Of a stretch of DNA of 64,000 bases, positions 4,377 through 47,770 are shown one piece after another. Position 1 is the stretch's first letter, and each line of letters begins with the position of its first letter. A program made the translations under genes and the position numbers. This DNA comes from Haliotis rufescens (taxonomy: Eukaryota): assembly GCF_023055435.1 (NCBI RefSeq), contig NW_025964235.1, forward strand, positions 1,178,001-1,242,000, read 5' to 3'. The notes beneath the pieces are model-generated. The model saw nothing but the letters and a program-made list of their open reading frames with translations. It was not told the origin of the DNA and searched no databases.

Positions 4377-4509
4377 CTGCATAGTTGTCAAACACTGTGG
4401 GTATATACTCCGTGGGGAACTTGTTGGTCGCGTAGCTCATCAACATGCACGTCTTGCCGACAGCGCCGTCGCCAACCACCACACACTTGATAAAATTAGG
4501 CTCCGCCAT
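4377..4509 (-). CDS. Rho-family GTPase gene A, coding exon 1 (canonical Rac/Cdc42/RhoJ-Q-like); remaining exons not found in window
   Basis: [44 protein letters not shown]: intact P-loop GDGAVGKT and switch [10 protein letters not shown]. Ends at a phase-1 donor G|GTAGGA. No DTAGQ exon recognised in 1-4376. Confidence 0.93.
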
Positions 4510-26081: not shown

Positions 26082-26471
26082 CTATGATACCACACAACTC
26101 TTTTTCTTGGTATCCACGGGAACGTACTTGTCCATATACGCGAGAGCCGCGCTTTCAAACACTCTCCGTAGTCCCACACAGCTCTTGGCCGAGCACTCCA
26201 CGTAGCCGAACGCGCCCAGTTCCTCCGCCTTCCGCATCCCTTCCTCGACAGGGATGGACCGACTCTTGGGGTCAGCGTCCTTGGTAATGGTGTTCCTGGC
26301 GTCCGTCTTTGTGCCCACGAGGAGGAAGGGGGCAGTGGGGGAGTAGTCCCGGATCTCTGGCACCCAGTGGTGCTCCACGCGATCCAGGGAGGACGGGTTG
26401 GTGACGTCATAGCACACCAAGTATACGTCAGTGTTGTGGCATACCTTCTCCCGCAGCTTCTGGTACTCGTC
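26082..26471 (-). CDS. Atypical Rho-family GTPase gene B, exon 3 (terminal)
   Basis: Acceptor TTTGCAG|GAC. DEYQKLR...NTDVYLVCYDV...WVPEIR...LLVGTKTD (G4)...YVECSAK (G5)...KKKSCVVS* (polybasic region plus CaaX). Confidence 0.93.
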   Translation of the reverse strand, partial: DEYQKLREKVCHNTDVYLVCYDVTNPSSLDRVEHHWVPEIRDYSPTAPFLLVGTKTDARNTITKDADPKSRSIPVEEGMRKAEELGAFGYVECSAKSCVGLRRVFESAALAYMDKYVPVDTKKKSCVVS

Positions 26472-26714
26472 CTGCAAACGTGGACCATAGCAGTTATTAT
26501 AAATATTTATCACACGCATATGGTATCACTTTTAGAATACATTCAAAGTCTTACCTAGGAGTGAGTGAGGGAGTCAGTTGGGTAGACAATATTACAGTTA
26601 TATCACGGCGTGTCAGCCTAATGCGGAAGGGAAGTTCAAAGAACCGCAGACGTTTACCATTTAAATTGGTGAAAGCCACAAGGACCGATCTAGTGCTGCC
26701 GACACATGGGTGCG

Positions 26715-27997
26715 GAAGAGTCTGTCACGAACCCGCTTCTGTGGAATCTGTGACGAACCCGCCCATGGAGGATGTGACCAACCCGCCCCTGAGGAATCTG
26801 TGACCAACCCGCTTCTGAGGAATCTGTCACGAACCCGCCCATGGAAGAATCTGTGACCAACCCGCCCCTGGGGAATCTGTGACCAACCCCGCTCCTGAGG
26901 AATCTGTGACCAACCCGCTTCTGAGGAATCTGTCACGAACCCGCCCATGGAGGAATCTGTGACCAACCCGCCCCTGGGGAATCTGTGACGAACCCGCTTC
27001 TAAGGAATCTGACACGAACCCCTCCTGAGTAATCTGTGACGAACCCACCTATGAGGAATCTGCGGCGAACCCACCTATGCGGAATCTGCGGCGAACCCGC
27101 TCCTGAGGAATCTGTGTTGAACACACCCCTGAGGAATCTGTGGCGAACCCGCCTATGAGGAATCCGTGACGAACCCACCCATGAGGAATCTGTGGCGAAC
27201 CCGCCTATGAGGAATCCGTGACGAACCCGCCCCTGAGGAAACTGTGGCGAACACACCCCTGAGGAATCCCTGGCGAACCCACCCATGAGGAATCTGTGGC
27301 GAACCCGCCTATGAGGAATCTGTGGCGAACCCGCCCCTGAGGAAACTGTGGCGAACACACCCCTGAGGAATCCCTGGCGAACCCGCCCCTGAGGAATCCG
27401 TGACGAACCCGCCCCTGAGGAATCCGTGACGAACCCGCCCCTGAGGAATCTGTGGCGAACCCGCCCCTGAGGAAACTGTGGCGAACACACCCCTGAGGAA
27501 TCCGTGACGAACACACCCATGAGGAATCTGTGGCGAACCCACCCATGAGGAATCTGTGACGAACCCACCCATGAGGAATCTGTGGCGAACCCACCCATGA
27601 GGAATCTGTGGCGAACCCACCCATGAGGAATCTGTGGCGAACCCACCCATGAGGAATCCGTGACGAACCCGCCCCTGAGGAAACTGTGGCGAACACACCC
27701 CTGAGGAATCCCTGGCGAACCCGCCCCTGAGGAATCCGTGACGAACCCGCCTCTGAGGAATCTGTGGCGAACCCGCCTGTGAGGAATCTGTGACCAACCC
27801 ACCCATGAGGAATCCCTGGCGAACCCACCCATAAGGAATCTGCGGCGAACCCGCTCCTGAGGAAACTGTGGCGAACCCACCCCTAAAGGAATCTGTGGCG
27901 AACCCGCCTTTGAGGAATCTGTGGCGAACCCGCCTCTGAGGAATCTGTGGCGAACCCGCCTGTGAGGAATCTGTGGCGAACCCGCCTGTGAGGAATC
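26715..27997. repeat. Minisatellite, 26-bp unit GAGGAATCTGTGGCGAACCCGCCCCT (intron 2 of Rho gene B)
   Basis: Direct inspection. Confidence 0.97.
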
Positions 27998-29279
27998 CCA
28001 TAGCTTTATCCCAAGGCCACCCTCATCACATAGCTTCATCCTCAGTCCACCCCATGACAACTCAATGAGACTGTTTCTTATATCATGGCATATAGCACGT
28101 TAATGCAATAAATATAAAAAAATAAACTCCAACTGCTTGAACATTTACACCTTGACGATCAAGCGTCAGTTATATTCCTACAGCGTCTTTCTGGACATAA
28201 ACGAAGTTTCAGTGAAGTCTATGTGGGAGCCTCTATTCCATGTGTTACGCAGAGATATGTATTGACGTGAACTCCCTGTTCACCGCGGAACGACCGTCAA
28301 GAAATATGCTGCTGTTCAACTCGGGCGTCAGCTTATTTTCTTAAAGGGGACAACTGTTATTTCAAGCGTCCTATATCCTAGCGAGACAACACTCCTTCAA
28401 GTCTGCCATGGAGGGGTTGTATAGGTTGCCGAGTGGTCGATACGTTGGCATGCCCTGCCTGTGACCTGGGTTTGATTTCCATCATTGGAAAAACAGCGAC
28501 TCACTCACTCACTCACTCTGCCGAGGGGCAAGCTCCGCCTTATAGACCCTCACACCAACAACTCTGTTACTCAACCAAAGTGCACGTGATTGACAGGCCG
28601 TGTTGCCCACCTGTCGTGCAGCCATCGAGGCCGTGTATAAGTGACGATGGCATGTAAATGAGGGACTAGACTAGACTACGGCCTGTCATCAATCTCCACA
28701 ACATCATCACTGTGCAATAGCATGACACATTACCAGCATACCGCCGCGTTCTCACCCACAGTCACCAATACCTGATTGACACGGGTTGTAACACCCGTCA
28801 GCCGCTAACGAGCTGTTGTAAACTTGACTGCTAACTCGTAAAAGGTACTGTAGAATGCCTTTGAAATTCCGTACACACAAACACATATATTTGCACCTTA
28901 TATAGCACATGTGTTTATGTTGCCTCTGTTGTGTATTGATATCTCAGGGTTTGGGACTTGATTTGGTTATGAATTATTCAGATTCCGGTGGGCCGTGCCT
29001 GAGTTTGTTTACTTGGTGCAGTATGTTGATACGTTATGACGTACAGCAGGTATCATAAACCTTGAATCGACTGGCTAAATAAACTCTGTGCACTGGACAT
29101 TCCGGCACGGTGTATGTAGACAGGAATTTGTTGTGGTAGTCAGTTTAAACATGCAATAATTTCAAGCAGTCTGTACATGCCTTTGATCTAGGTCGTCGAA
29201 TGAAAGGGGAGATAACTGAGACAGATGAACATGTCCGCCGTGCGAGGCGGGCTGATGAATGCGCTCATGACGACATCGC

Positions 29280-29455
29280 AGCTGTTCAGGTAATTGATTC
29301 TGGCATCAATGGTTCACGAAGTGTTTATGAAATACTAAAGCTGGGTATATTTTTTAAGTACACTACGTGTGATATTGTCCGGATTCCAGCGCATGTTGGG
29401 CTGTATGGAAATGAGATGGCAGACCCAAAATCCAAATCTGGCTTGCAAAATCCTT
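29280..29455 (+). pseudogene. Relic RNase H domain of a non-LTR retrotransposon
   Basis: IVRIPAHVGLYGNEMADPKSKSG matches the W-[IV]-P-[AS]-H-x-G-x-x-G-N-E-x-A-D-x-x-A-K RNase H C-terminal motif. Confidence 0.75.
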
Positions 29456-29509
29456 ACGTAATAATATCTGATTTCAGACCCGAACCAAACGATTTCGACT
29501 TCATTTTAA

Positions 29510-29670
29510 TGAGTGAGAATGGTTTTACGCCTCTTTAGCAATATTCAAGCAATATAACGGCGGGGAACACCAGAAATGGGCTTCAAACATTGTACCCATG
29601 TGGGGAATCGAACCCGGGTCTTCGGCGTGACGAGCGAACGCTTTAACCACTGGGCTACCCCACCGCCCCG
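29510..29670 (-). mobile_element. SINE family A
   Basis: Near-identical to the reverse complement of the 52097 copy. Confidence 0.92.
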
Positions 29671-31467
29671 ACAGGAATATGAAAGAATCGGGTTCCCTTA
29701 ACTTCTTTTGAGTAGTATATACCGTACCCATCCAGGTGTTAATCAGGACTATATCACTGATATGTCCGAAGTTTCACTGCATCAATGGCTACTTGACGAG
29801 TAGCTAGACTTTTACCTCGACATGCTGAGTGGGTGGCCAAGTGGGCCGAGTGTTCGCTTATCCTGCTTACCTCTGAGTTTGTATACCCCACGTGGGAAAA
29901 TTTATATGGATTTGTTTCTGTCCTGGGAGAAGCCGTCGGACTGTTAAGGTGGGGACACTAATTTACTTATTCACTCAATTATGAAATTTGAGCAGCTAAT
30001 CAAGTTTCACATGGTATTCACATCCCGTTCAATGTTTGACCACGCTCTCTGCGCTGTTGGCGTCAAACAACCAACGTGTTTGATTGGCGTGCGTCACAAC
30101 TCGCATAGATGTTTATAATACAACAACACTGTTTGAACCGAATAAAAAATAACAAATGTATCATTGAAACGTGCATGATCCCAGCACAGTCAGCGGTTAT
30201 CGCTCCTCTCGTCGTGTTTCCAATTACATGTATTTTCGTGAACTTTCAAATACGTCGGGTGGACATGATTGGCGCGTTCGATGCTGAAGGGGAGGGTGGA
30301 GGACGCGCGCGTGTGTGTGTATCTGTGTGTGTGCGTTCGTATGTGTGTCTGTGTGTGTGTCGTATGTTCATAATTTAACCAGTGAAATACGTTACATTTT
30401 TATATAACCGAGGAAAACCATGCAGACAAAGCGTTTGCCTTGCCCCAAGTCGCTACTGAATGATAAATCCGCGGATGATCATTTCCACATAGACTTGTGC
30501 AAGTCTAGTCAACATGTTCTTGTATGTCAACAAGTTACGCTTCTCACGGGACAATGTTGCCGTTGTACAGTCCACAGCTTTAGATACCAGAGTGAGTGAG
30601 TATGGTTTTACGCCGCCTTTAGCTAACGCGCGAGGAAGGTATAAGTGTTTAGGTGCCACGACTGATATAATTCAATAACATGATAGTAACCGAAATGATA
30701 TAAATCGTAATCAAATATAATGAAAATGAAATATCGACGTTAATCGTTCGAGACAAGCGAACTACCGATGATAAACCATAACGCCCTTCATATCGTGGTG
30801 AAAGGGACATCGTCTCAAACGATAAGTACACTTTATGTATAACTCGACAAATAGCTATAAATAAACCTTTCCTTGAACTGAAAATGATGGTATCCATTGT
30901 TGTCAGTATATTCAATAACAAGTTGTTTGCCATCGCTCCTCGAAATGACAGATAGCGTTATGAAATAAATGCGCCCGTTATTTAAAAAAACCCTATCAAT
31001 TACTGGTGTCTGCGTATCGTGATTCCTTAAACTTCCTAAGTGCAGACAAAAGGTGGGGTTAGATCTTTCCCCCATTAGTCTATCGCAAGAGGCGGTTTAG
31101 TGTGGGCGTTGCTGATGATATCAATCACTGGTTTGTCTGTTTGAGACTCGACTGTTTACAGGCGGCCGTCATATTGCCAACATGAAACAAACAACATGTT
31201 ATTTAGGCCCAGTCACGCCTTTGACATGGGGTTCGGGGGAGTATGGACAGGGATGAGTGTTGTGACGTTGTCATAGTAACCATGAAGTGTTCATTCACAT
31301 TACTGAAGGTTTCGGTTGCTGCTGTCTCTACCGGAAGGAAATGTTAGACTAGAAAACGGATTACTGATAAATATATTCAAAAAATCACTGCGTAAACAGA
31401 ATGCGGAAGTGGTGTAATCACCACTATACTGTTATGCCTCATTCGTCACAGACCAGGGGTAACAAGC

Positions 31468-34097
31468 TATACTATGGTATATACCATGGATACCCTGGTA
31501 TATTCAATGGATGCACTGTTATATACTATGGATACCCTGTTATATGCTATGGATACCCTGTTATATACTATGGATACCCTATTATAGGCTCTGGATACCC
31601 TGGTATATTCAATGGATACCCTGTTATATTCTATTGATACCCTGTTATATGCTATGGATACCCTGTTATATGCTATGGATACCCTATTATAGGCTCTGGA
31701 TACCCTGGTATATTCAATGGATACCCTGTTATATACTATTAAACCTTTTATATGCTATGGATACCCTGTTATATACTATGGACACCCTGTTATATGCTAT
31801 GGATACCCTGGTATATGCTATGGATACCCTGCTATATACTATGGATACCCTGTTATATAATATGGATAACCTGCCATTTACTGGGAAAGATTTCACTAAT
31901 GATACCCTGCCATATATGATGAATATCCTGCTATATGTTATGGGTACCCAGCTATATACTATGGATATCCTGCTATATACTATGGATACCCTGATGTCTA
32001 CTATGGATACCCTGATATATACTACGGATACCCTGCTATATACTATGGATACCCTGTTCTATGCTATGGATACCCTGCTATATACTCTGGATTCCCTGCT
32101 ATATACTATGGATACCCTGATATATACTATGGATACCCTGCTATATACTATGGATACCCTGATGTCTACTATGGATACCCTGATATATACTACGGATACC
32201 CTGCTAGTTACTATGGATACCCTGCTATATGTTATGGATACCCTGCTATATACTCTTGATTCCATGCTATATACTATACACTGATATATAATATGGATAC
32301 GCTGATATATATACTACGGATACTCTGGTGTATACTGGGGATACCCTGCTATATACTATGGATGCCCTGACATTTACTGGGAAAGATTTCACTAATGATA
32401 TCCTGCCAAATATGATGAATATCCTGCTATATGCTATGGATACCCTGTTATATACCAACGGACACCCTGCTATACACAACGGACACCCTGTTATACACAA
32501 CGGACAACCTGCTTTACACAACGGACACCCTGTTATACACAACGGACACCCTGTTATACACAACGGACACCCTGTTATACACAACGGACACCCTGTTATA
32601 CACAACGGACAACCTGCTTTACACAACGGACACCCTGCTATACACAACGGACACCCTGTTATACACTACGGACACCCTGTTATACACTACGGACACCCTG
32701 TTATACACAACGGACACCCTGTTATACACAACAGACACCCTGTTATACACAACGGACACCCTGCTATACACAACGGACACCCTGTTATACACAACGGACA
32801 CCCTGTTATACACAACGGACAACCTGCTTTACACAACGGACACCCTGTTATACACAACGGACACCCTGCTATACACAACGGACACCCTGCTATACACAAC
32901 GGACACCCTGCTATACACAACGGACACCATGTTATACACTACGGACACCCTGTTATACACAACGGACACCCTGTTATACACAACGGACACCCTGTTATAC
33001 ACAACGGACACCCTGTTATACACAACGGACACCCTGTTATACACAACGGACACCATGTTATACACAACGGACACCCTGTTATACACTACGGACACCCTGC
33101 TATAAACAACGGACACCCTGCTATACACAACGGACACCCTGTTTTACACTACGGACAACCTGCTTTACACAACGGACACCCTGTTATACACAACGGACAC
33201 CCTGTTATACACAACGGACACCCTGTTATACACAACGGACACCCTGTTATACACTACGGACACCCTGCTATACACAACGGACACCCTGTTATACACAACG
33301 GACACCCTGTTATACACAACGGACAACCTGCTTTACACAACGGACACCCTGTTATACACAACGGACACCCTGTTATACACAACGGACACCCTGTTATACA
33401 CAACGGACACCCTGTTATACACTACGGACACCCTGTTATACACATTGGACACTCTGTTATACACAACGGACACCCTGTTATACACAACGGACACCCTGCT
33501 ATACACAACGGACACCCTGTTATACACAACGGACACCCTGTTATACACAACGGACAACCTGCTTTACACAACGGACACCCTGTTATACACAACGGACACC
33601 CTGTTATACACAACGGACACCCTGTTATACACAACGGACACCCTGTTATACACTACGGACACCCTGTTATACACATTGGACACTCTGTTATACACAACGG
33701 ACACCCTGTTATACACAACGGACACCCTGTTATACACAACGGACACCCTGTTATACACAACGGACACCCTGTTATACACTACGGACACCCTGTTATACAC
33801 AACGGACACCCTGTTATACACAACGGACACCCTGCTATACACAACGGACACCCTGCTATACACAACGGACACCCTGTTATACACAACGGACACCCTGTTA
33901 TACACAACGGACACCCTGTTATACACAACGGACACCCTGCTATACACAACGGACACCCTGTTATACACAACGGACACCCTGTTATACACTACGGACACCC
34001 TGCTATAAACAACGGACACCCTGCTATACACAACGGACACCCTGTTTTACACTACGGACACCCTGTTATACACAACGGACACCCTGCTACACACAAC
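31468..34097. repeat. Compound 21-bp minisatellite (CTATGGATACCCTGTTATATA changing to CAACGGACACCCTGTTATACA), intron 2 of Rho gene B
   Basis: Two related unit types with a switch near 32455; ends a few nt from the exon 2 donor. Confidence 0.97.
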
Positions 34098-34101
34098 CTA
34101 C

Positions 34102-34187
34102 CAGTCCAACTGTGTCCACCAGATTCAGGGAAACGGAAGTCCCCTCATATTCAAACTTGACCGGCTCCCGAGTCACGTGGGCAAACT
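34102..34187 (-). CDS. Atypical Rho-family GTPase gene B, exon 2
   Basis: Acceptor TATTTCAG|, 86 nt, (E)FAHVTREPVKFEYEGTSVSLNLVDTVGL, donor |GTAGGT. Phases 1 and 0 join exons 1 and 3 in frame. G3 motif is DTVGL. Confidence 0.88.
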
Positions 34188-34686
34188 CTGAAATACAGAT
34201 ATTTATACAATGACAAGTAGGATGAATTGCCAAACTGTCAATCAATGTGTCGCCTTCCAATAGCCGCGTCTGAAGAACGGGTCTAGCGGCCGTGAGACAG
34301 ACACACTCGTGACTCTCTCCAGATTAAGTCCAAAAAGGATATTCAATTATTTTCATTTATAGACAGTTTTTCGAGGCGATAAACAACCCTGATATATTGG
34401 TATATGAAAATATGAAAGAAATTAGATCACCTGTATTAAACTACCTTTAATACGCCCCATGTATGGATGCGGTAACTGCTCGCTCATACTTTTGCATGAC
34501 TTTTCATTAGGTTTAGAAAGAAGGTATTTCGCTGTGTGTGGGCGTGGCTGCATTCGCATGTGACACTGTATGATAAATTGGCTTGCATGCGCAGTTTCTA
34601 AAGTTAATTCAGTGAGTAATGTAACGCCTTAAATATTATAATTAAAAAATGACATTATATGACATTCAATTCTGTATTGTAAATAA

Positions 34687-35000
34687 CCGTCTCAGTGGTT
34701 TAGTGGAGAGAGCGTCTGCTCGGAGAGAGGAGATCCCTAGCCGCTTCTAGTCAAACCAAAAGATGGTACTTGTTGTTACACTACCTGGATATCGGCATTA
34801 AGGAGCAAAAACAAGGACAGGTCGGCTGGGAGTCAGTATTATGTGCCTGAGTGGGGTATTCATGTTAAAATGTGGCGTGGTATCTCCGTGGGCTGAGACT
34901 GGCATTAGTCCGGACTAGTGCAAGCGGCTTCGCACACATCCATACACGCCGCTCGCTATATAAGTTTAAGAACGTGACGTTACTCCCTATTTCATTTCAC
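34687..35000 (+). mobile_element. SINE family C copy
   Basis: Homologous to 57110-57465. Confidence 0.8.
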
Positions 35001-37135
35001 GGTAAATAGGACAATTAGGAACAAGTATAATTTGCATAAGGCTCGCATTTTGGACTTGTTCCTCATTTTATATTCCTACTTACCCCAACGATGTGTAAAC
35101 ATTAATCTCTTTATACATAACAATTACATAAAAGAAACATTTTCTTGTGAATAGAACCTGGATTATGTTTTAGATTTGTCAAGTTCCTAAATCCGAAGCC
35201 GAGAACAAGCTATAACGTGGCTAGGACTGTGGTTCTGTTTGTGTTACCAAATACTTTATTAAAGTTTCACACACACGTCTCATATTTCACTTAGAAATTA
35301 ACTGCCATTTCCTCGAAGTATGTCGGTAACAAGGCACCATTGTCCTTACAAAATGACATCCTGTTTTGCATATCGCCCTATCATTAAAAACTCAGGAATG
35401 CTTTGGGTCACGTGTTTATGTAATTGGCTCTATGTTCCGTGGTGCACGCGACAGTTTCCAGCTGGGTGCGAGTGCCACGCGCCACAGACAACCTAGGCCA
35501 GCCGTGTTTGGAAGATAAGGAGACGTCCCCCGATGTGTGGAGCTTCCTTTGCTGCAAGCCCCCACAACAGGTGGCCTTCGCCGGAAACAACTGTCGTCTG
35601 TTGTCACCCAAATTGGCGGGAATGCTATCAGATCGCTAAATGGAACGCTCTCTGTGTTATCCCTAATATTGATTGAGGTCGTCGGGTAATAAATTGTTAT
35701 CCAACAGGAAATCGTTTTCAATCTGCAGCTGCGTTAGATGACGCAACATGTGACAGGTAATTAGATGACAAGTGGCACCTCGGAATACACAAACAACAGA
35801 TGAACTTATTTACATCTTGTGTTGTCACTGAGCGATGATTTTAACGGAGTACAAGGAAATTCCGTATCTAATCTGTCAGCTTAATCTCATGATGATAAAT
35901 AAAGTTGTTTCCTGTTTTTAGAGGACTTTTTTTGATAATGCAACAAAAATATGTTGAATCAACACCTATTTACATTTGTCGAAACTCTTATCGTGTTACA
36001 TTCTGCTGTGCGTCAAGCCATGCATGTGTTAACAGACTTATCTGCCCTAGACACTGCTGTGATATGCACACCACATAATATGCCCATTATGTATGAACAA
36101 TATGACAGTTTGTTACAAAACCTGTTACTCATGCAGCGGGGTTTATCCGATTCGGTGTTATTAGGCCGTGTTACATGAGCTGGTCGACCAATAGCACTTC
36201 ACGCTATTAGCATTCCTATAGGCACAGAGGAAATACTAGGCAATGGTGGTCACACTTAGATCCAGTTGCTATGGGAAAGACCTGGTTCTCCACTGGTCAC
36301 GGATTGTCACCACGTGTAGGGTGTTATAATATATATTTCCTAAACATAAAACAATAGTAAAACATGCCACGTGGTATGCAGGATTAATGCAACATGTCAA
36401 CGAGTGCCTCGTTTGCAGCTGAACGATACAACGTGAGTGTTTTTGTACCTATAAACAATGGCTTTTCAACAAGTGACACTTTAACTTTTGACACAATCAA
36501 CAGCATAATGAATAAATCGTATATTTTAATAGGCAAGATGGGGCCGCCAGAGATCTATAGTGCAGACGTGTTAACGCAGATATAAAACTGCCATAAGATT
36601 ACGTAGATACAAATAAATCAATATAGAGGTGTTGTGATATTTATCAGTCAATACCTCCCCACATGGCCCTCCGACAAGCTGTGCCAGCCTTTATCCTACT
36701 TCACTAGCTTTGATCTTATTACTATTCACAATACGTCTGCAGTTGTACCTATATGCTAATGAATGTTTGCAGACGGGGAAGTTTATAAAGCGTTACATTT
36801 TTCTGACGGGATTTTTCTCCGCTGAGTTATTGATGCGTGTTTTGTATATAATTATGTGGACCTGTTTATGGCGTGTATCACGCTAGGCGCGGCTTCCTTA
36901 ATGACTGGTATACTTAAGAGAGCTTAACTCAGCATGTTTCTACTGCCTGTATATGTTGACAGAAAGGGTCAATTAATATTTTGTATGATAGTTTTAAGTA
37001 ATTACCTATCGATAGTACATATTTAACTATTAACTATACGACATTGTCAAAGGGGGCTTTGAATAATGATAAACGTTGAGGAAACATGTAGAAAGTAAGA
37101 TGGTTAAATCTTGAGAAAGAAGTGTAGAAACTTAC

Positions 37136-37271
37136 CGTTGTGCCAGTCCATAGATCCTGGGAGGTAGGACTCCGGGTATTTTCCTGTCAGAAAAGTAAGC
37201 ATGAGGCATGTTTTGCCCACTCCCCCGTCCCCCACCGCCGTGCACGTGACCGTGTACTGCTTGCCTGCCAT
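37136..37271 (-). CDS. Atypical Rho-family GTPase gene B, exon 1
   Basis: Manual translation MAGKQYTVTCTAVGDGGVGKTCLMLTFLTGKYPESYLPGSMDWHN with P-loop GDGGVGKT. Phase-1 donor G|GTAAGT at the same position as gene A. Not in the ORF track. Confidence 0.92.
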
Positions 37272-37475
37272 CCCCTCTGTCCGTGTCCCAGGCTAGCGTG
37301 TGAGTGACTGAGGCTTGTGCCGTGACGCAGTCTCGCGATACTCCCGGCGCTGGGCGGTGTGACGCGACTACAGTTGGGCTGCGAGATGGAGTTGGGGTCC
37401 AGGCAGAGAGTGTGTGTTGTCATACAGTGGGGCTAGGATCTGGGGAGTCTCGTCAGCTGTACTACCGTATGCCTT

Positions 37476-37482
37476 TTTTATA
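37476..37482 (-). promoter_or_regulatory. Candidate TATA box of Rho gene B
   Basis: Minus strand GGTTATAAAAAAGG about 205 nt upstream of the ATG. CCAAT motifs at about 37501 and 37607. Confidence 0.5.
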
Positions 37483-38309
37483 ACCACAGCTCAGCTGTTT
37501 CCAATAATCCTTTTATTGAGTTTTTAAGACCTTTGCTCATCCAACTAAACTTTTTGTTGAATCGATCCTCTATTAGAGTTCACAGAACCCATCTTTTGAG
37601 AATAACCAATCACCTTTGCTGGCAGAAACCACTTTTTTTTAAATAATCTTTTAAAATAAACAAGCGTTACCTTCACTAGATACGCTGTTTTCGGCTTTGA
37701 AATATGTGTCTCCTCACTCCTCACTGTTACAGGGTCTATATCTCATGATACATGGGTAATATGTTTCCGTGGTAAAGACGGTCGTGCGGGAGGCAGGGGT
37801 GGGTGGGTGGGGGATCTGTAGAGAGAGAGAGGGGGGGGGGGGGGGGGGGGGGGCAGTTGGATGATGATGGGGACACACGGTATCAACATCACCGAGCCGC
37901 ACACATCCACCAGAGTTTCCGTCGACGTCATCACCCACAGCGAGAAGGTTGAAGCTTTGGCGCGACTCGTTACAAATATTTGTTGTTGCCACAATGGGGA
38001 ATTGTTAGGCATGCATTACCATAACCCCTGTCTCCTCCTTCAACTGCTAATGGATATTGGGCAGCATTTCACCCGCACTTGTAGCTGTGTTTGAACAAAG
38101 GGGAAGGTTTAATGCATTGTACCCTTTTCGTGAGACAATTTGTACCAAGACGGGCGCTGAGTTTAATACGGAGACAAACACAACCAAGTGCCCTCTGTAA
38201 GATCTCACACAACGTCTATGTCCCCGGGATAAGCGGGGAGGCTTCTCACCACCCTCTCACTCGCAAACAACTGGATTAACATTCCAGTCACAGCACATAG
38301 AACAATGTT

Positions 38310-38313
<4 letters not shown>

Positions 38314-38376
<63 letters not shown>
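38314..38376. repeat. (CA)n microsatellite
   Basis: Direct inspection. Confidence 0.97.
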
Positions 38377-38377
<1 letters not shown>

Positions 38378-39286
38378 CGTGAATCACATCTACATGTATC
38401 CTGATTGAGATAGTACAGTATCGCCACTGATATCCATCCCAGTGTTTTTCAATAAAAACGACCACGCCCCCTTTTACAAGAAAGTGGTGTCAACACGAGG
38501 GACTGTGTTTGGTTGGTACACATGCGCCCTATTCAAGTTTATGACGCGAGTACCTGCGGCCTGGGAAAGTTGAACGAGTTGAAGAGTGTCGAGAGACATA
38601 CATACAGATACGCTGACAGAAAGAAACAGGTTGAAAAAAGTTTGTTTGTACACAACATGCGTGGGGAGAGGTTTTCCCAAAATAGATTCTGCAATATTCC
38701 TGATGGGAATGAGAGGCGAGGACAGCTTGTGAATGTCGCGAACCTTACTAAAACAATGCCTCTTAATGAGAGTTTGAAGAGGAAGGATGTCATTTATAAA
38801 CTGCTAAGCCGGTATAATGAGACGGAATGAAAGGCGATTTAATTTGAACGAAACGTCACAACACTGAATACGGCCCAGGAGATTAAAGTCGGCATGAAGG
38901 GATTATACGACGCTTACAACATAATATTGGCGGACATTGTCATACTCGGGTTAAGTACTCATACAGATCCTAAAATCCGTTTATGTCAGTTTTTATTGAA
39001 GTAATTATTTTGACCTAAGAGTTAAGTAGCGAGCGTAGGATAACTAAGCAGGGAGCCGAGCAGCATGTTGCTATACTGACATCTAAACACCATCATCCGT
39101 GTAAGCAGACTCTGTACCCTCATCTTGTTCTCATGTATACACTGTAGGGCGGAGTACCCCAGACACATCACAGCGGCAGGGAGGGGCGTAGATAGGCCCT
39201 AGAGAAGGCTAAGTCCAATACCGCTGCAAGACATGTGTTGGTAAAGATTGTAAACTGAATGAAACTAAGTGATGGCTTCATATTTG

Positions 39287-40935
39287 TCATCCCGCCGTGA
39301 TATACCTGTCATACCGTCGGGATATATGTCATGCCGTCATGATATATCTGTCATACCGTCGGGATATACCTGTTATACCGTCGTGATATATGTCATGCCG
39401 CCATGATATATCTGTCATACCGTCGTGATATACCTGTTATACCGTCGTGATATATGTCATGCCGTCATGATATATCTGTCATACCGTCGGGATATACCTG
39501 TTATACCGTCGTGATATATGTCATGCCGCCATGATATATCTGTCATACCGTCGTGATATACCTGTTATACCGTCGTGATATATGTCATGCCGTCATGATA
39601 TATCTGTCATACCGTCGTGATATACCTGTCATACAGCCATGATATACCTGTCATACAGCCGTGATATATCTGTCATACCGTCGCGATATATTTGTCATAC
39701 CGCCGTGATATACCTGTCATACAGCCGTGATATATCTGTCATACCGTCGTGATATATCTGTCATACCGTCGTGATATATCTGTCATACTGTCGTGATATA
39801 TATGTCATACCGTCGTGATATACCTGTCATACCGTCGTGATATACCTGTCATACAGCCATGATATACCTGTCATACAGCCGTGATATATCTGTCATACCG
39901 TCGTGATATACCTGTCATACAGCCATGATATATCTGTCATACCGTCGTGGTATATATCTGTCATACCGTCGTGATATACCTGTCATACCGTCGTGGTTTA
40001 TATCTGTCATACCGTCGTGATATAACTGTCATACCGTCGTGATATACCTGTCATACAGCCATGATTTACCTGTCATACAGCCGTGATATATGTCATACAG
40101 CCATGATATACCTGTCATACTGTCGTGATATATCTGTCATACCGTCGTGATATACCTGTCATACCGTCGTGATATACCTGTCATACAGCCATGATATACC
40201 TGTCATACCGCCGTGATATTTCTGTCATACCTTCGTGATATACCTCTCATACATTCGTGATATACCTGCCATACCGTCGTGATATACCTGTCATACCGCC
40301 GTGATATACCTGTCATACAACTGTGATATACCTGTCATACCGTTGTGATATATCTCTCATACCGCCGTGCTATATCCTTCGGACAGTCGTGGTATACCTG
40401 TCATACAACCATGATATAACTGTCATACCACCGTGATATATGTGTCATACCGCTGTGAAATATCTGTCGGACACCTGTGATATGAACACCCAATGCCATT
40501 TCAAAAGTGGTCAAATGTAACAAATGTTATATTTGGGATAACACTTTGTAAGTAAAGTACAGATTCTAGTACTGTTTTTGGTTGAGTCCCGTCTAGGATT
40601 CGAACCCTAACTGCCAGACTAGTGAGGCACCTAATCGCCAGCACACAAAGCCAGCGATCTAACCCACTCAGGCGATTACCACCAACTAATCTGTGGTTAG
40701 GTGCCTCACTCTGGCTGTGTTGGTTCGAATCCCGGCCGGGACTCAACCCAAAACAGGTACGAGAATCTGTACTTTACTAAGTGTTGTCCCAAATATAACA
40801 TTTGTTACAGCTGTGGTATTTTTGTCATACCGTCGTGATGGAACTATCGGACGGTCGTGCTATATCTGTCATACCGCTGTAATATATATCAGTCCTGCTA
40901 TATCTATCATACCGTCGTATCTGTCCCTGATATAT
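39287..40935. repeat. Minisatellite, 22-bp unit GATATACCTGTCATACCGTCGT, interrupted at about 40490-40810 by an insertion
   Basis: Direct inspection; degenerate units resume after 40810. Confidence 0.95.
40516..40809. mobile_element. Foldback element with two inverted tRNA-B-box-containing arms
   Basis: TGTAACAAATGTTATATTTGGGA ... TCCCAAATATAACATTTGTTACA, with GGATTCGAACC / GGTTCGAATCC in the arms. Related pieces at 60300-60560 and 60900-61130. Confidence 0.75.
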
Positions 40936-41046
40936 TAGTCATGTCTCTCAAATGCAGGTGATGACTGTAACACAACACAGGTCGTTCACTCATCACGTGT
41001 AAAGAACAAATACAGAAGGCAGAAACCCTTCATGGTTTAATCATAG

Positions 41047-42596
41047 ACGATACTAAAACAGGTGACAGTGACGTCGATACTGACACAGGTGACAGTGACG
41101 TCGATACTAAAACATGTTACAGTGACGTCGATACTAAAACATGTTACAGGGACGTCGATACTAAAACATGTTACAATGACGTCGATACTAGCACAGGTGA
41201 CAATGACGTCGATACTAAAACAGGTGGCAATGACGTCGATACTAAAACAGGTGACAGTGACGTCGATACTGATACAGGTGACAGTGACGTCGATACTAAA
41301 ACGGGTGACAGTGACGTCGATACTAAAACATGTTACAGTGACGTCGATACTAAAACAGGTGACAGTGACGTCGATACTAAAACATGTTACAGTGATGTCG
41401 ATACTAAAACAGATGACAGTGACGTCGATACTAAAACAGATGACAGTGACGTCGATACTAGCACAGGTGACAGTGGCGTCGATACTAGCACAGGTGACAG
41501 TGACGTCGATACTAAAACATGTTACAGTGACGTCGATACTAAAACAGATGACAGTGACGTCGATACTAGCACAGGTGACAGTGACGTCGATACTAGCACA
41601 GGTGACAGTGACGTCGATACTAAAACATGTTACAGTGACGTCGATACTAAAACAGATGACAGTGACGTCGATACTAAAACAGATGACAGTGACGTCGATA
41701 CTAGCACAGGTTACAGTGACGTCGATACTGGGACAGGTGGCAGTGACGTCGATACTAGCACAGGTGACAGTGACGTCGATACTAAAACAGATGACAGTGA
41801 CGTCGATACTAAAACAGATGACAGTGACGTCGATACCAAAACAGGTGACAGTGACGTCGATACTAGCACATGTTACAGTGACGTCGATACTAGCACAGAT
41901 GACAGTGACGTCGATACTAGCACAGGTGACAGTGACGTCGATAGTAAAACAGATGACAGTGACGTCGATACTAGCACATGTTACAGTGACGTCGATACTA
42001 GCACAGGTGGCAGTGACGTCGATACTAAAACAGATGACAGTGACGTCGATACCAAAACAGGTGACAGTGACGTCGATACTAAAACAGGTGACAGTGACGT
42101 CGATACTAGCACATGTTAGAGTGACGTCGATACTAGCACAGATGACAGTGACGTCGATACTAGCACAGGTGACAGTGACGTCGATAGTAAAACAGATGAC
42201 AGTGACGTCGATACTAGCACATGTTACAGTGACGTCGATACTAGCACAGGTGGCAGTGACGTCGATACTAACACAGGTGACAGTGACGTCGATACAAACA
42301 CAAGTGACAGTGACGTCGATACTGGGACAGGTGACAGTGACGTCGATACTGACACAGGTGACAGTGACGTCGATACACACACAGGTGACAGTGACGTCGA
42401 TACTGGGACGGGTGACAGTGATGTCGATACTGATACAGGTTACAGTGACATCGATACAAACACAGGTGACAGTGACGTCGATACTGGGACGGGTGACAGT
42501 GACGTCGATACTAACACAGGTGACAGTGACGTCGATACTGATACAAGTTACATCGATACTGACAGGTTACAATGACGTCGATACTGACGCAGGTTA
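41047..42596. repeat. Minisatellite, 27-bp unit GACGTCGATACTAAAACAGGTGACAGT
   Basis: Direct inspection. Confidence 0.97.
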
Positions 42597-43105
42597 CCGA
42601 GTCGTCGGCGTCACACCAGATAAAAATACACTTGATAAAATCAATGCGTAAGACCTATTTTGCAACATTTTGGAACAATGTTTCAACTTGTTGCATTTTG
42701 AATGTTTGTTTGATGAAGGGTATCTAATACCATATATATATAATAAACCGTAAACTGCTGCAGTCCAGCATTACATGCAAAAGGTTGATACATTGTACTT
42801 CGGATATTACGAACTGGTGTTAGGAATTCATTTATACCGAAGTGATCTACAATGAAGGTTCAGTTTGAAACAGAGGGAGCTCCTGGAAGCAAATCCAGCT
42901 CCTCATCCTGGAAGCAGGCCCAGACACAGATCCTGGAAGCCAATCCAGACACCGATCCTCAATCATCTAATTGTATTTACACGTCATTGACCTTGCAGCG
43001 GCAGGGTCGTGGGGTCAACTTCCTCCTTACCAGGAAGGGCTGTTGAATGTCACTATTTTATGTGTCGTTTCTTGATAATGTAACAGAATCAGTGGACAAT
43101 CTATT

Positions 43106-43528
43106 TCATAGTATCACACATCTACAACAGTCTTTCTCTGGCACATTGTGACCTCCACCAACGCGGCTTTTCTTTGTCATACAAGCTGCGTGCGCTGCTG
43201 TGAGAAACACCGACCTGACGCCATCGTTATTGAGAGATGAACACTCCACATAGTCCACGACCTTCAATTCACGTGCCAACCTCTGACCTTCCTCGTGGAG
43301 CACGGGCTTTTTACCGATCTCTGCTAAGCCCGACTTGACGACAGAATTGTTCCGGAGGTCAAGTTTGGTGCCAACGACAATTATTGGGATCTCAGGCTGG
43401 GCAGACCGGATTTCCGGCATCCATTTTTCCCGCACATTTTCAAAGGATTCTGGACAGGAAATGTCGAAGCAGACGACAAACACGTCAGTGGTCATGTACT
43501 CCAGCAACCGTAGAGACAAGGAGCTGTC
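43106..43528 (-). CDS. Atypical Rho-family GTPase gene C, exon 3 (terminal)
   Basis: Acceptor TCTTTTGTAG|GAC. TDVFVVCFDI...SFENVREKWMPEIR...VVGTKLDLR (G4), Rho insert, YVECSSL (G5), ending DCCRCVIL* (CaaX). Confidence 0.93.
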   Translation of the reverse strand, partial: DSSLSLRLLEYMTTDVFVVCFDISCPESFENVREKWMPEIRSAQPEIPIIVVGTKLDLRNNSVVKSGLAEIGKKPVLHEEGQRLARELKVVDYVECSSLNNDGVRSVFLTAAHAACMTKKSRVGGGHNVPEKDCCRCVIL

Positions 43529-44226
43529 CTACAAAAGACAAGAAACCCGATACAGCAAAGGATGCTACATAATCTGTATCATTTACTTAAAGAATATAAA
43601 TATAAATTGCGTTTCCCAAAAGAATATCATTTTTAAAAGAACAATGATCATATGTCGAGGGTATCCTTGGTCGGGGTCAGATTACGTCCCCAGAACCTAG
43701 TGCTTGCCCTAAGAGCAGACTAAATTGGGGATTGGTTGGTCAGGGTCTGTAGCTTGATCCGTTGATCATGTTATCCAACAGCGGGCTGTCTGGCCCTGAC
43801 TCAAATATTTACAGGGCGTCGTAATATAGCTTGGATGACGCGGTTTAAAACAACATTCACCAAGGGCGCCAATTTGGGTGGCAGGCAGCCCACGGATGAT
43901 GTCACTAAGAGTAAGTGCGTGTCGTGAGAGAGGGGCCTATCCTTCATGTAATGTAATATCATATGTTTTCTTGAAGAGTTTTAAAAAAGTCATCTGCGTC
44001 TTACTTTTCTTTTTCAAAATAAACAAAGGCATGTGAGGATTTTGAGCTGTGCAGGCGAGTGAAACTGACACTCGCTCTCAGACACAGATCTAACGTGTTG
44101 GCGTTCGGGACCATGACGACTTCAGCTAACGGGTCAACCATTCTATATAACCAACAGCACCCTGCAAATCTAAGGCTCGATTTGGGGTTTATGACAAGGG
44201 GTTGAGGGGATGTCCGTGGCACTCAC

Positions 44227-44315
44227 CAGTCCCAGCGTGTCGGTGAAGTCCAGATCGTAACGTTGTCCGTCCACCTGGATGTTGGGGTAGGTGCTCTGGT
44301 TGAAACCGGTTCCAG
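44227..44315 (-). CDS. Atypical Rho-family GTPase gene C, exon 2
   Basis: Acceptor TTCTTGTTCCAG|, 89 nt, (A)GTGFNQSTYPNIQVDGQRYDLDFTDTLGL, donor |GTGAGT. In frame with both flanking exons. Confidence 0.9.
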
Positions 44316-46053
44316 CTGGAACAAGAAACGGAAGTGTCATATAAGGGTATATCAGCTGTTGAATTGAGGCACTCGTCACCACTCTCATATGTCCGTAACT
44401 TATAGGAGGGGGGCCTTCGGCTTGTCCCGGAATGGCACGTGTTGGTCACGAATGGAAATGTAAAACTTCATCGGTTTGAGGAGAGTGAAAGTTGGGGCCT
44501 ACATATTACATATATTGAACGTGTATTCATTAGTTTTGAAGGATTATTGATATCTATTGCAACTGTGAAGATAAGTTCCCGTAGAAACATCCTTTATCAT
44601 GTTTATACAGGTATATATATCAGATAGCTACGCTGTAAATCGCAAAGAACGATGAAGAACGAAGCGTGGTTTATTTCGCGATAAAACATTGTTCTCTCAT
44701 GACGTCATTTTTGGAGATTTGATTATGCGCTCGCAACTTGATGACGTCATATATTGGACGACATTTTTGAGAGGGAAGTATCAAGTGAGTTGTTCCCAAT
44801 AGATGTAGTTGGGGTAAGCAGATAAGCGTCGAACGACCGCATGCAGAAGTGGGAGAGGCATGGTAATCGGTATAAGGAGAAAAGGTACAGATAATCGACG
44901 TGAGGATTTTGAGAATATGCGGAAAATACCAATACCAAACCCGCCTGTTCATAAAATGGACTTGTCCGACATTGCGGAGGTCGGATTCTATTCAGGGAGT
45001 CATCATTTTTAAAATACGGGTACATCTTTTTAAAGCTTGTACATTTTATGACCTGACTGTACTGTTCGCCCCTCATGGTTTATTGTCCCCGCAGTGTTTT
45101 ATTGTACGATATCCAGCTTCCCACGATTCACCATAACGTGATCTGTTATCATGTAATACAAAATAAACGTTCTCTATAAGCATTTTCGTATGTCGGTGAT
45201 GATTAAATCATGTACAATGTGATGTTTTCAAAAAAACATTTTTGTTGAGAATTCTGAATCGACACATACAATTTAAGTCTAGAAGAAAAAAAAACTTCAC
45301 AAAAGTTATAGGTTCAAATGTGCCTAACAAGGGATTGCACGTAAGTTTTCAAAACCAAAATGATGTTTTTATATAACAACGCTCGAGCCCGATGCGTTGA
45401 TGTTTGCTCTCCCAAACACTGATGTCTTTGTTTTCAAATTCTAAGGACATCAAAATTGTAAAATGGTGGAGAATCTGGTTTTGTGGAAACCCTAACTGCT
45501 TGATCTGATGTGGAATATGCCGCAGTTGTAATTGTTCTAGCCAAAGTAAACAAGGCGGGCTCGGCCGACTACAGTGGAAATGTCACAGCATCGGCGGGCG
45601 GCTGTCAATTGAGAAGGCCAGAGGGACATTATAGCACAACATATTAACATATCATTTGATGTCGGTGGTTAATAACCGTTAATGTACAGAGTGACCCACT
45701 ACATAATCACACTGGTTTAATATCAGCTGTTTTGGGGAATTGGATAACTGTTATACAAGCAACGTGATGGATCGACGCCTCTGTCATCCGTCTGCCATAT
45801 GAGATATGCTTGCGAGAGGCAGCTTGCTGATTGTGTGGTAGCAAGGCAAAGGGAAACGGTCGAGTAGCTTCTAAATGGGACATTCTAGTGGTGTGCATCA
45901 CACATCAACACACGTGATGTAACATCCGGGCAGGAGAGGAATATGGTAAACTATCGTCTTCATTCAACACATGCTCGCCCAGGGTCGCACTTGTTCGGAT
46001 ATAACGAACCCAGGACTGGTCCTGGTAAACTTGTATGGAAGGTCTCATACTAA

Positions 46054-47053
46054 TGCCATATACCATAGCCATATACCACAGTCATATACCATAGCCATAT
46101 ACCATAGCCATAAACCACAGTCATACACTATAGCGATATACCATAGTCATATACCATGGTCATACACCACAGTCATACACCACAGTCATATACCATAGCC
46201 ATATACCATAGTCATATACCATAGCGACATACCATAGCCATATACCATAGTCATATATCATGGTCATATACCATAGCGACATACCATAGCCATATACCAT
46301 AGTTATATACCATAGCAATATACCATAGTCATACACCATAGTCATAAACCATAGTCATATACCATACCGATATACCATAGTCATAAACTATAGTCATATA
46401 CCATAGACATACACTATAGTCATATACCATAGCAATATACCATAGTCATATACCATAGTCATATACCATAGTCATACATCATAGTCATACACCATAGTCA
46501 TATACCATAGTCATATACCATAGTCATATACCATACCGATATACCATAGTCATATACCATAGTCATACACCATAGTCATACACCATAGTCATATACCATA
46601 GTCATATACCATGGTCATACACCATAGGCATACACCATAGTCAAATACCATAGTCATATACCATGGTCATACACCATAGTAATACACTATACTCATATAC
46701 CATAGCCATATACCATAGCAATATACCATAGCTATATACCATAGTCATACACCATAGCCATATACCATAGTTATTCACAATAGCCATATACCATACTTAT
46801 ACATCATAGTCATACACCATTGTCATATACCATAGACACACACCACAGTCATACATTATAGCCATAAACCACAGTCATACACCATAGCCATATACCATAG
46901 CCATAAACCACAGTCATACACCATAGCCATATACCATAGCCATATACCATAGTCATATACCATAGCCATACACCATAGCCATAAACCATAGTCACACACC
47001 ATAGCCATATCCCACAGTCATTCGTTAACCACAGGCATATATCATAGCCATAA
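46054..47053. repeat. Minisatellite, 13-bp unit CCATAGTCATATA (intron 1 of Rho gene C)
   Basis: Direct inspection. Confidence 0.96.
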
Positions 47054-47226
47054 AATTGTCGTGAGGTCATCGAACCGTGACATCATATAACACACCGAAC
47101 ATCAGGGTTGATAGTACAGCTTGTGTATGATACAGCAGACGTATACGTTTATGATTGGACAACAGAACTGCACCCGACAGAGAGAGGGTTCAGGCCAAAT
47201 GAGTCACCACATATTTGCTTCTTGCA

Positions 47227-47616
47227 ACTGATGGAATACCAAATCAAACTGGGTATCCGTCTACATACGCATAGTGTCTAGACATCCCAAACTGGGTGCG
47301 TTTCACTCAGTGACATAACATATTAGACCAAGGACCGAGCTACTGATGGCATACCACGTCAGACTGGGTATCCGTCTACATACGCATAGGGGCTAGACAG
47401 CCTTAGACTGGGTACGCGTCTACTCAGTGACTTAAGACATTACACCAAGGACCGAGCTACTGATGACATGCCACTTCAGACTGGGTATCCGTCTACATAC
47501 GCATAGGGTCTAGACAGCCTTAGACTGGGTACGCGTCTACTCAGTGACTTAAGACATTACACCAAGGACCGAGCAACAGATGGCATACCCATCAGACTGG
47601 GTATCCGTCTACTCAC
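47227..47616. repeat. Tandem repeat, about 116 bp x 3.3, starting at the exon 1 donor of Rho gene C
   Basis: ACTGGGTATCCGTCTAC at 47248, 47363, 47480 and 47596. Confidence 0.92.
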
Positions 47617-47770
47617 CAAGATGCCACTCGAACGACGCCGGGACGCATGCTGGGTACTTCTTAGTGACGTAAGTCAGCAACAAACACGTCTTGCCCACTT
47701 GACTGTCTCCCACCACGGTCACCTTCAAGGTCCTGTGTTTGCTAACTCTCCGCTTGCCAGAGCTTGACAT
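47617..47770 (-). CDS. Atypical Rho-family GTPase gene C, exon 1
   Basis: Manual translation MSSSGKRRVSKHRTLKVTVVGDSQVGKTCLLLTYVTKKYPACVPASFEWHL. Phase-1 donor G|GTGAGT. A possible acceptor (TTGCCAG|ACAATG) just before the ATG suggests an upstream non-coding exon. Confidence 0.92.

Follow-up and report, generated by a model that had tools for sequence, protein, structure and literature searches.

We analyzed a 64,000-nucleotide stretch of the genome of the abalone Haliotis rufescens (NCBI RefSeq assembly GCF_023055435.1, contig NW_025964235.1, positions 1,178,001 to 1,242,000 of the forward strand; hereafter the window) that carries genes for Rho-type small GTPases, two of which (genes B and C) have unusual switch regions. 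Scanning all six frames, we located three P-loops of the Rho type, all on the minus strand, at 4473 (gene A), 37232 (gene B), and 47710 (gene C). Gene B has three exons that span 26082-37271 and encode 203 amino acids; gene C also has three exons, which span 43106-47770 and encode 221 amino acids (Table 1). The coordinates quoted in a preliminary description, made from the sequence of the window, took in only the interval from exon 1 of B to exon 1 of C. On the minus strand, the switch I strings occupy 4422-4378 in A, 37181-37137 in B (KYPESYLPGSMDWHN), and 47659-47618 in C (KYPACVPASFEWHL); the string in C is one residue shorter than that in B.

Table 1. Exons of the Rho-type genes, in coordinates of the window
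Feature	Positions	Strand	Content
Gene C exon 1	47617-47770	-	Start; P-loop GDSQVGKT (G12S); T35A at 47638-47636; W39-H40 at 47626-47621
Gene C exon 2 (89 nt)	44227-44315	-	About 10 extra 5' residues (44315-44287); beta2/beta3; G3 DTLGL (A59L, Q61L); GT-AG borders
Gene C exon 3	43106-43528	-	Rebuilt switch II DSSLSLRLLEY; intact G4 TKLD; G5 ECSSL; tail DCCRCVIL; stop
Gene B exon 1	37136-37271	-	Start; P-loop GDGGVGKT; T35G at 37157-37155; W39-H40 at 37145-37140
Gene B exon 2 (86 nt)	34102-34187	-	9-residue insertion EFAHVTREP at 34187-34162; beta2/beta3; G3 DTVGL (A59V, Q61L)
Gene B exon 3	26082-26471	-	Switch II DEYQKLREKVC; G4 TKTD; G5 ECSAK; tail S-CVVS at 26099-26085; stop
Gene A exon 1	4377-4509	-	Tc10-type paralogue; canonical switch I; exons 2 and 3 are outside the window, to its left

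Genes B and C are intact, real genes. The C model is letter-for-letter identical to the RefSeq protein XP_046364300.2 (Haliotis rufescens), and the sequence cluster of B includes XP_046364302.1, which is equal to it in length. The joint between exons 1 and 2 of B (34187/37136) is present in contigs of four of four sequencing runs, which come from four studies and are presumed to be RNA; a search of sequencing runs gave no match that is recorded as RNA. Furthermore, loose ends from exon 2 of B read into exon 3 in all three of the runs that display them. For C, the splicing rests on the RefSeq model, the GT-AG borders, and agreement with orthologues. A, B, and C have their introns at the same places (intron 1 one base beyond codon 41, intron 2 after codon 61), and these common positions fix the register of the switch I residues. 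The changes that the preliminary description had read in B and C (F28Y, T35G or T35A, V36S, N39W, and Y40H) are present as quoted. We rejected another register for C, in which Thr35 would lie in exon 2 (within TGFNQ), because intron 1 aligns across A, B, and C and because this motif is absent from the C protein of Gigantopelta. Separately, intron 1 of B contains a high-copy short repeat (34760-34900) where the contigs of all four runs give very deep coverage.

In A-type genes exon 2 measures 59 nt; that of B measures 86 nt and that of C 89 nt, with the extra 27 or 30 nt at the 5' end. Both proteins therefore have a net 9-residue insertion, which starts at intron 1 and lies between switch I and beta2. 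A shorter splice form without the insert was considered and rejected, as no in-frame internal acceptor AG occurs within 45 nt of the start of exon 2 in either gene. Both proteins also have a bulky residue in place of Ala59 (A59V or A59L), Leu61, a small residue at position 56 (F/W56V/T), and an altered switch II. Position 12 is Ser in C (G12S) and is still Gly in B. (The insertion and the changes at 12, 56, 59, and switch II were absent from the preliminary description.) The G1 motif, Asp57, Gly60, and the G4 and G5 motifs are kept in both.

The best PDB sequence matches are to Cdc42, the fold matches are to Cdc42, RhoA, and Rac, and the PF00071 match is at 2e-32, with only Ras/Roc families hit. 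A search of the ESM Atlas returned generic Rho clusters only. The model of C has a predicted local distance difference test score (pLDDT) of 86.6 and superimposes on Rho1 of S. pombe with Z of 27.6 and a root-mean-square deviation of 1.5 A over 174 residues. In this model, FEWHLA is helical, beta2 is cut to four residues (63-66), and the Rho insert helix is at 143-151. B and C are both predicted to fold as Rho G domains.

To see how widely these features are shared, we drew relatives from 120 of 592 matches and from the best 150 of another search, so their taxonomic range is a lower bound. Complete N-terminal halves were available for 37 family members: 17 of the B type (four from Haliotis, Gigantopelta, Batillaria, ten named heterobranchs, and one further sequence), 5 of the C type (four from Haliotis, and Gigantopelta), and 15 of a bivalve type (Mactra, Mercenaria, Dreissena, Mya, and eleven others, three of which resemble a Mytilus model). 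We left out the truncated sequences P0005, P0007, P0130, and P0269-P0271, as well as the Mytilus model itself (P0303), whose middle is missing. Family members occur in Aplysia, Lymnaea, Biomphalaria, mussels, and clams, and the databases call them Cdc42, Rac, or RHO. Among the matches listed, no named non-mollusc sequence bears the signature; limpets, oysters, scallops, and cephalopods do not appear by name either, which is not evidence of their absence. The combination of an insertion of at least 6 residues with a bulky residue at 59 was found in none of 265 other G1-G3 pairs examined. B is 94-95% identical among abalones, and B and C are on contigs of equal length in every abalone and in Gigantopelta, which is consistent with their linkage having been kept. 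In the abalone genome we did not find a separate bivalve-type gene (the best match to P0295 is only 43% identical).

Thr35 is replaced in all 37 sequences, by Gly (17), Ala (5), Ser (12), or Glu (3). Position 59 is V, L, I, F, or Y and position 56 is V, I, T, or S in 37 of 37, and the net 9-residue insertion is identical in length in 22 of 22 gastropod sequences. The residues that are new and invariant in B are Gly35, the E, H, and T of the insert motif E-[FY]-x-H-[LV]-T (17 of 17), and D62, E63, Y64, L67, R68, and C72, with DEYxKLRE as the switch II consensus. Between 11 genera, the identity of B is 54% in switch I, 76% in G3 and switch II, and 60% over the whole domain. This conservation across classes refutes the view that B and C are decaying, functionless duplicates, which we consider very unlikely: the two are only 39-46% identical to canonical relatives in the abalone genome, as decay would allow, but their reading frames are open, their introns have GT-AG borders, the B joint appears in every run, and orthologues with invariant new motifs extend from vetigastropods to pulmonates and to bivalves. 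C and the bivalve-type sequences are changed at all of positions 12, 59, and 61; B sequences keep Gly12 (17 of 17) and in some cases Gln61 (6 of 17).

The preliminary description had proposed that effector-uncoupled B and C proteins might have a new partner that recognizes Trp39-His40, and it had named non-conservation of this motif in orthologues as evidence to the contrary. We found Trp39-His40 in 5 of 17 B sequences, 5 of 5 C sequences, and none of 15 bivalve-type sequences; in B it is replaced by G-H, G-L, or G-F (11 of 17) or by W-N (1 of 17). Uncoupling and a new partner fit the residue data, but the counts partly bear out that contrary evidence, and Trp-His is not a hallmark of the family. 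Nor is F28Y a family trait: of the 17 B sequences, 7 have Tyr28 and 9 have Phe28, all 5 C sequences have Tyr28, and of the 15 bivalve-type sequences, 2 have Tyr28 and 13 have Phe28.

A CaaX box ends 36 of the 37 proteins, the exception being the Lymnaea model. B has the tail S-C-x-x-S in 16 of 16 sequences with a CaaX box, while among 121 canonical sequences the final X is Ser in 3 and the residue before the Cys is Ser in 6. X is Ser in 15 of 15 bivalve-type sequences and Leu in C, whose tail also has two upstream cysteines. X = Ser is taken as a signal for farnesylation and X = Leu for geranylgeranylation. By analogy, the tail of B suggests farnesylation and possibly Rnd3-style extraction from the membrane by 14-3-3 proteins that bind a phosphorylated serine; it resembles Ser240-Cys241 of Rnd3 (PMC3690454; articles are cited by PubMed Central identifier, and each statement refers to the portion of the article available to us).

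We built a tree from 48 of 56 sequences (four long-branched and four redundant ones were dropped), with the insertion columns excluded and with no identified Rnd or RhoH sequence among them. The B, C, and bivalve-type sequences, 19 in all, fall into a single clade with support of 100/99, or 95/83 without columns 28-61; in a quick tree of all 56 sequences, the Shimodaira-Hasegawa-like approximate likelihood ratio test value for this clade was 96. The RhoU clade is separate at 100/100. A sister relationship of B and C is not established: it appears in the best tree at only 79/51, and without columns 28-61, B instead joins the bivalve sequences at 80/37. The family is one Rho subfamily common to gastropods and bivalves and would predate their split, and B and C are probably gastropod co-orthologues of one bivalve gene. 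As for their origin, the intron positions of B and C match those of A, RhoU, and three other modelled three-exon abalone genes, and differ from those of Cdc42, Rac, Mig, RhoA, and RhoBTB. This match, along with the position of B and C beside A, suggests that a Tc10-type gene was duplicated in tandem. The insertion probably came about when exon 2 was lengthened at its 5' end in a three-exon ancestor of the Tc10/RhoU type.

What might these proteins do? The account that we lean towards, as somewhat better than an even guess, is that B and C, for which prenylation and binding of guanine nucleotide are predicted, likely do not switch, are likely uncoupled from CRIB effectors and from RhoGDI, and likely have partners of their own. 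They would likely be membrane-bound adaptors, not ordinary switches or decoys. Nucleotide loading would be retained because G1, Asp57, Gly60, G4, and G5 are kept. Hydrolysis and closure of switch I would be weak because there is no Thr35 to read the gamma-phosphate and residue 59 is bulky, with Leu61 in addition in Haliotis. The candidate partner site in B is the E-[FY]-x-H-[LV]-T insert with the DEYxKLRE switch II, and in C it is the VPASFEWHLAG segment; the partners are probably different, and control might be exerted via expression and location. The beta2 edge strand, with which CRIB peptides pair, would be made shorter by a proline at 41/42. In Cdc42, changes at Y40 abolish CRIB binding, and the Q61L/T35A protein loses the actin response (PMC6678527); B and C naturally carry this combination of Q61L, loss of Thr35, and a changed Tyr40. 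Of the 11 GDI contacts in Table 2 of PMC8253491, B keeps 3, C keeps 4, A keeps 8, and abalone Cdc42 keeps all 11. These observations argue against CRIB or GDI coupling. The human Rho proteins in that table all have Thr or Ser at position 35.

Several results weigh against this account. Given Gly12 in every B sequence and Gln61 in six, hydrolysis may survive in some members, and the Ser35 of twelve bivalve-type sequences is like that of human RhoF (PMC8253491). In the B model, pLDDT is below 50 at residues 36-52, so switch I and the insert are not placed. The whole B insert is 63% identical between genera, which is about average; its first six residues are 77% identical, a window that was picked after viewing the data. 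Because B and C differ from each other in the insert, switch II, and the lipid tail, one shared partner is unlikely. Nor do the trees reject a clade sister to gene A (approximately unbiased test, p-AU = 0.23) or to RhoBTB (p-AU = 0.13): the family is apart from RhoBTB in the best trees, and the latter value (0.131) was obtained with a rough, long-branched model of abalone RhoBTB. Finally, the insert has a near-invariant, subgroup-specific Thr or Ser that could replace Thr35.

This last point leads to the strongest rival, in which the switch has been relocated: a hydroxyl residue of the insert would do the job of Thr35, and the proteins would still cycle, with a new effector surface. All 17 B sequences have a Thr 19 residues before Asp57, all 5 C sequences have one 17 residues before it, and 14 of 15 bivalve-type sequences have a Ser or Thr 20 residues before it. 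Arf and G-alpha proteins have the 19-residue spacing. The Gly12 and Gln61 of B sequences favor this explanation as well. However, the three subgroups use three registers, none of them at the canonical 22 residues, and in the Rho register the Thr of B would be three residues too close to beta2. Also, a bulky residue at 59 is universal, and the models leave the loop unplaced. We give a relocated switch roughly one chance in five, and we prefer the view of B and C as non-switching adaptors.

The preliminary description had suggested that Q61L makes B and C decoys. They would absorb GTPase-activating proteins (GAPs) or guanine nucleotide exchange factors (GEFs), thereby tuning gene A. Leu61 is indeed present in both proteins of the window, which sit in tandem beside A, and B keeps an acidic pair like E62/D63 along with Tyr64, Leu67, and Arg68. 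But a trap should retain its switch surfaces, and positions 35-40, 56, 59, 66, and 69-72, which we take to be GAP and GEF contacts, are changed, and both switches are rebuilt. The B orthologues that keep Gln61 do not fit a Q61L trap, the newly fixed residues are conserved across gastropods, and adjacency is expected anyway from tandem duplication. We consider a decoy improbable.

Even less probable, in our judgment, is an immune role in which the family evades, or acts as bait for, bacterial enzymes whose targets on Rho proteins are Thr35, Asn39, or Gln61, all of them known modification sites. All three sites are changed in the B and C proteins of the window, and the abalone has many divergent Rho paralogues, but these same residues simply are the switch residues, and the low copy number and strong conservation of the family (see above for B among abalones) are unlike an arms-race gene. 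An article on abalone haemocytes mentions an up-regulated "cdc42 homolog" (PMC11250055), which may or may not belong to this family.

B and C belong to the Rho family by their nearest solved relatives, the Rho insert, and the G1, G4, G5, and DxxG motifs, but they lack the Thr35-Val-Phe-Asp-Asn/His-Tyr loop and the DTAGQ of classical Cdc42, Rac, and Tc10 proteins, with both Thr35 and Ala59 lost throughout the family. The equivalent of Thr35 is also absent from RGK proteins, which belong to the Ras branch and have a G3 of the DxWE type; in contrast, the B/C family is Rho-type and keeps DxxG. Rnd1-3 and RhoH are similar to B and C in having the Rho fold, substitutions at 12, 59, and 61 (except that B keeps Gly12 and, in 6 of 17 sequences, Gln61), and few GDI contacts. 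To our knowledge, they have no insertion of the B/C type. Another difference is that Rnd1, Rnd2, and RhoH keep Thr35-Val36 (PMC8253491), which the B/C family has lost. Rnd and RhoH are the proposed functional analogues of B and C (PMC13236570, PMC3690454).

RhoBTB1 and RhoBTB2 carry some 10 additional residues following switch I (PMC4931677), comparable to the net 9 of the gastropod proteins, and abalone RhoBTB, a separate gene, also has a bulky residue at 59 (DTFG). However, abalone RhoBTB keeps the Thr, and RhoBTB proteins have BTB domains, a 6-residue insertion before switch I, and a 2-residue deletion in switch II (PMC4931677), whereas B and C end in a CaaX box after 203 or 221 amino acids, lack BTB domains as well as this insertion and this deletion, and have different introns. 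The three-exon genes for mollusc Tc10 (Li et al. 2015) and RhoU share the introns of B and C (41+1 and 61), and the Tc10-type gene A is adjacent, but their proteins keep Thr35, Ala59, and Gln61 and have no insertion; the protein trees neither join the B/C family to Tc10/RhoU nor rule that out. The Tyr28 of RhoU/V (PMC10903452) is also found in the B and C proteins of the window, but many family members have Phe, and RhoU/V have no canonical CaaX box. Small G domains without a nucleotide-dependent conformational change, as we propose for B and C, have been described as pseudoGTPases (PMC11733253).

We found no description of such a family in the literature that we searched; subscription papers and supplements outside that search could mention it. 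A survey of bivalves (PMC4669188) and PMC7600811 describe nine Rho subfamilies, none of which matches the B/C family in the portions available. The survey does mention some oyster Rho proteins with incomplete G1-G3 loops, without detail in that portion. The family is real and old, and it is a variant within the atypical Rho class that apparently has not been described before; its function is deduced from sequence. We tentatively suggest a fuller scenario, which is less likely than not to hold in all of its parts: a mollusc Rho subfamily beyond the nine-subfamily scheme gave up Thr35 and formed its switch I anew out of an insert that had become exonic, with either the metal-binding Thr moved into the insert or a nucleotide-independent adaptor as the outcome, and with a Rnd3-like farnesyl/phospho-serine 14-3-3 tail arising independently in B. 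A subfamily without Thr35 that is older than the gastropod-bivalve split would be a natural test of small-GTPase signalling without canonical switching, which has been called an open question (PMC11733253). Furthermore, given the database labels of Cdc42, Rac, or RHO, expression studies may misread the family as a canonical switch.

Gene A had been described as canonical, but it is neither a canonical Cdc42 nor a canonical Rac. Compared by eye, the first exon of A agrees with the oyster gene that the supplement of PMC4669188 labels Tc10, a gene to which that article gives three exons. Because A does not group with vertebrate-type TC10 sequences in our trees, we use Tc10 in the sense of that article. 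A also has R66S and the switch II EEYTSLRMLSY, so it is not fully canonical. A Ruditapes philippinarum sequence (P0235) that groups with A (94/93, 88/91) has PGGWDNY and DTSGL (T35G, Q61L) and no insertion, which suggests that Thr35 was lost a second time, independently, in a gene of the Tc10 type.

Besides A, B, and C, we recognized no further gene in the window, which has 24 tandem-repeat rows and in which most long open frames lie inside repeats. Elsewhere, the abalone genome has a large Rho expansion, with 43 matches to exon 3 of C and with tandem clusters of RhoA-like, Cdc42-like, Rac-like, and three-exon genes on contigs C68, C212, C223, C334, C445, and C588. An atypical gene of the three-exon type (G000:C588:562001-592000; exon 2 not found) has the switch I PSVFDNHA (T35S, Y40H) and an odd switch II and G5. 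At G000:C68:10163001-10177000 are two paralogues of the RhoA cluster; the modelled one has DTGGS at G3 (A59G, Q61S) and is possibly GTPase-deficient. Recent tandem copies at G000:C223:51.41-51.47 Mb have the switch I YEATVFDNY and an altered G3 (DTAG, DTVG, or DNSA), and one has an in-frame stop. Lastly, identical match scores at G000:C75 and G000:C212:3011137-3015297 suggest that a Cdc42-like gene is present there as a duplicate or as a haplotype copy.

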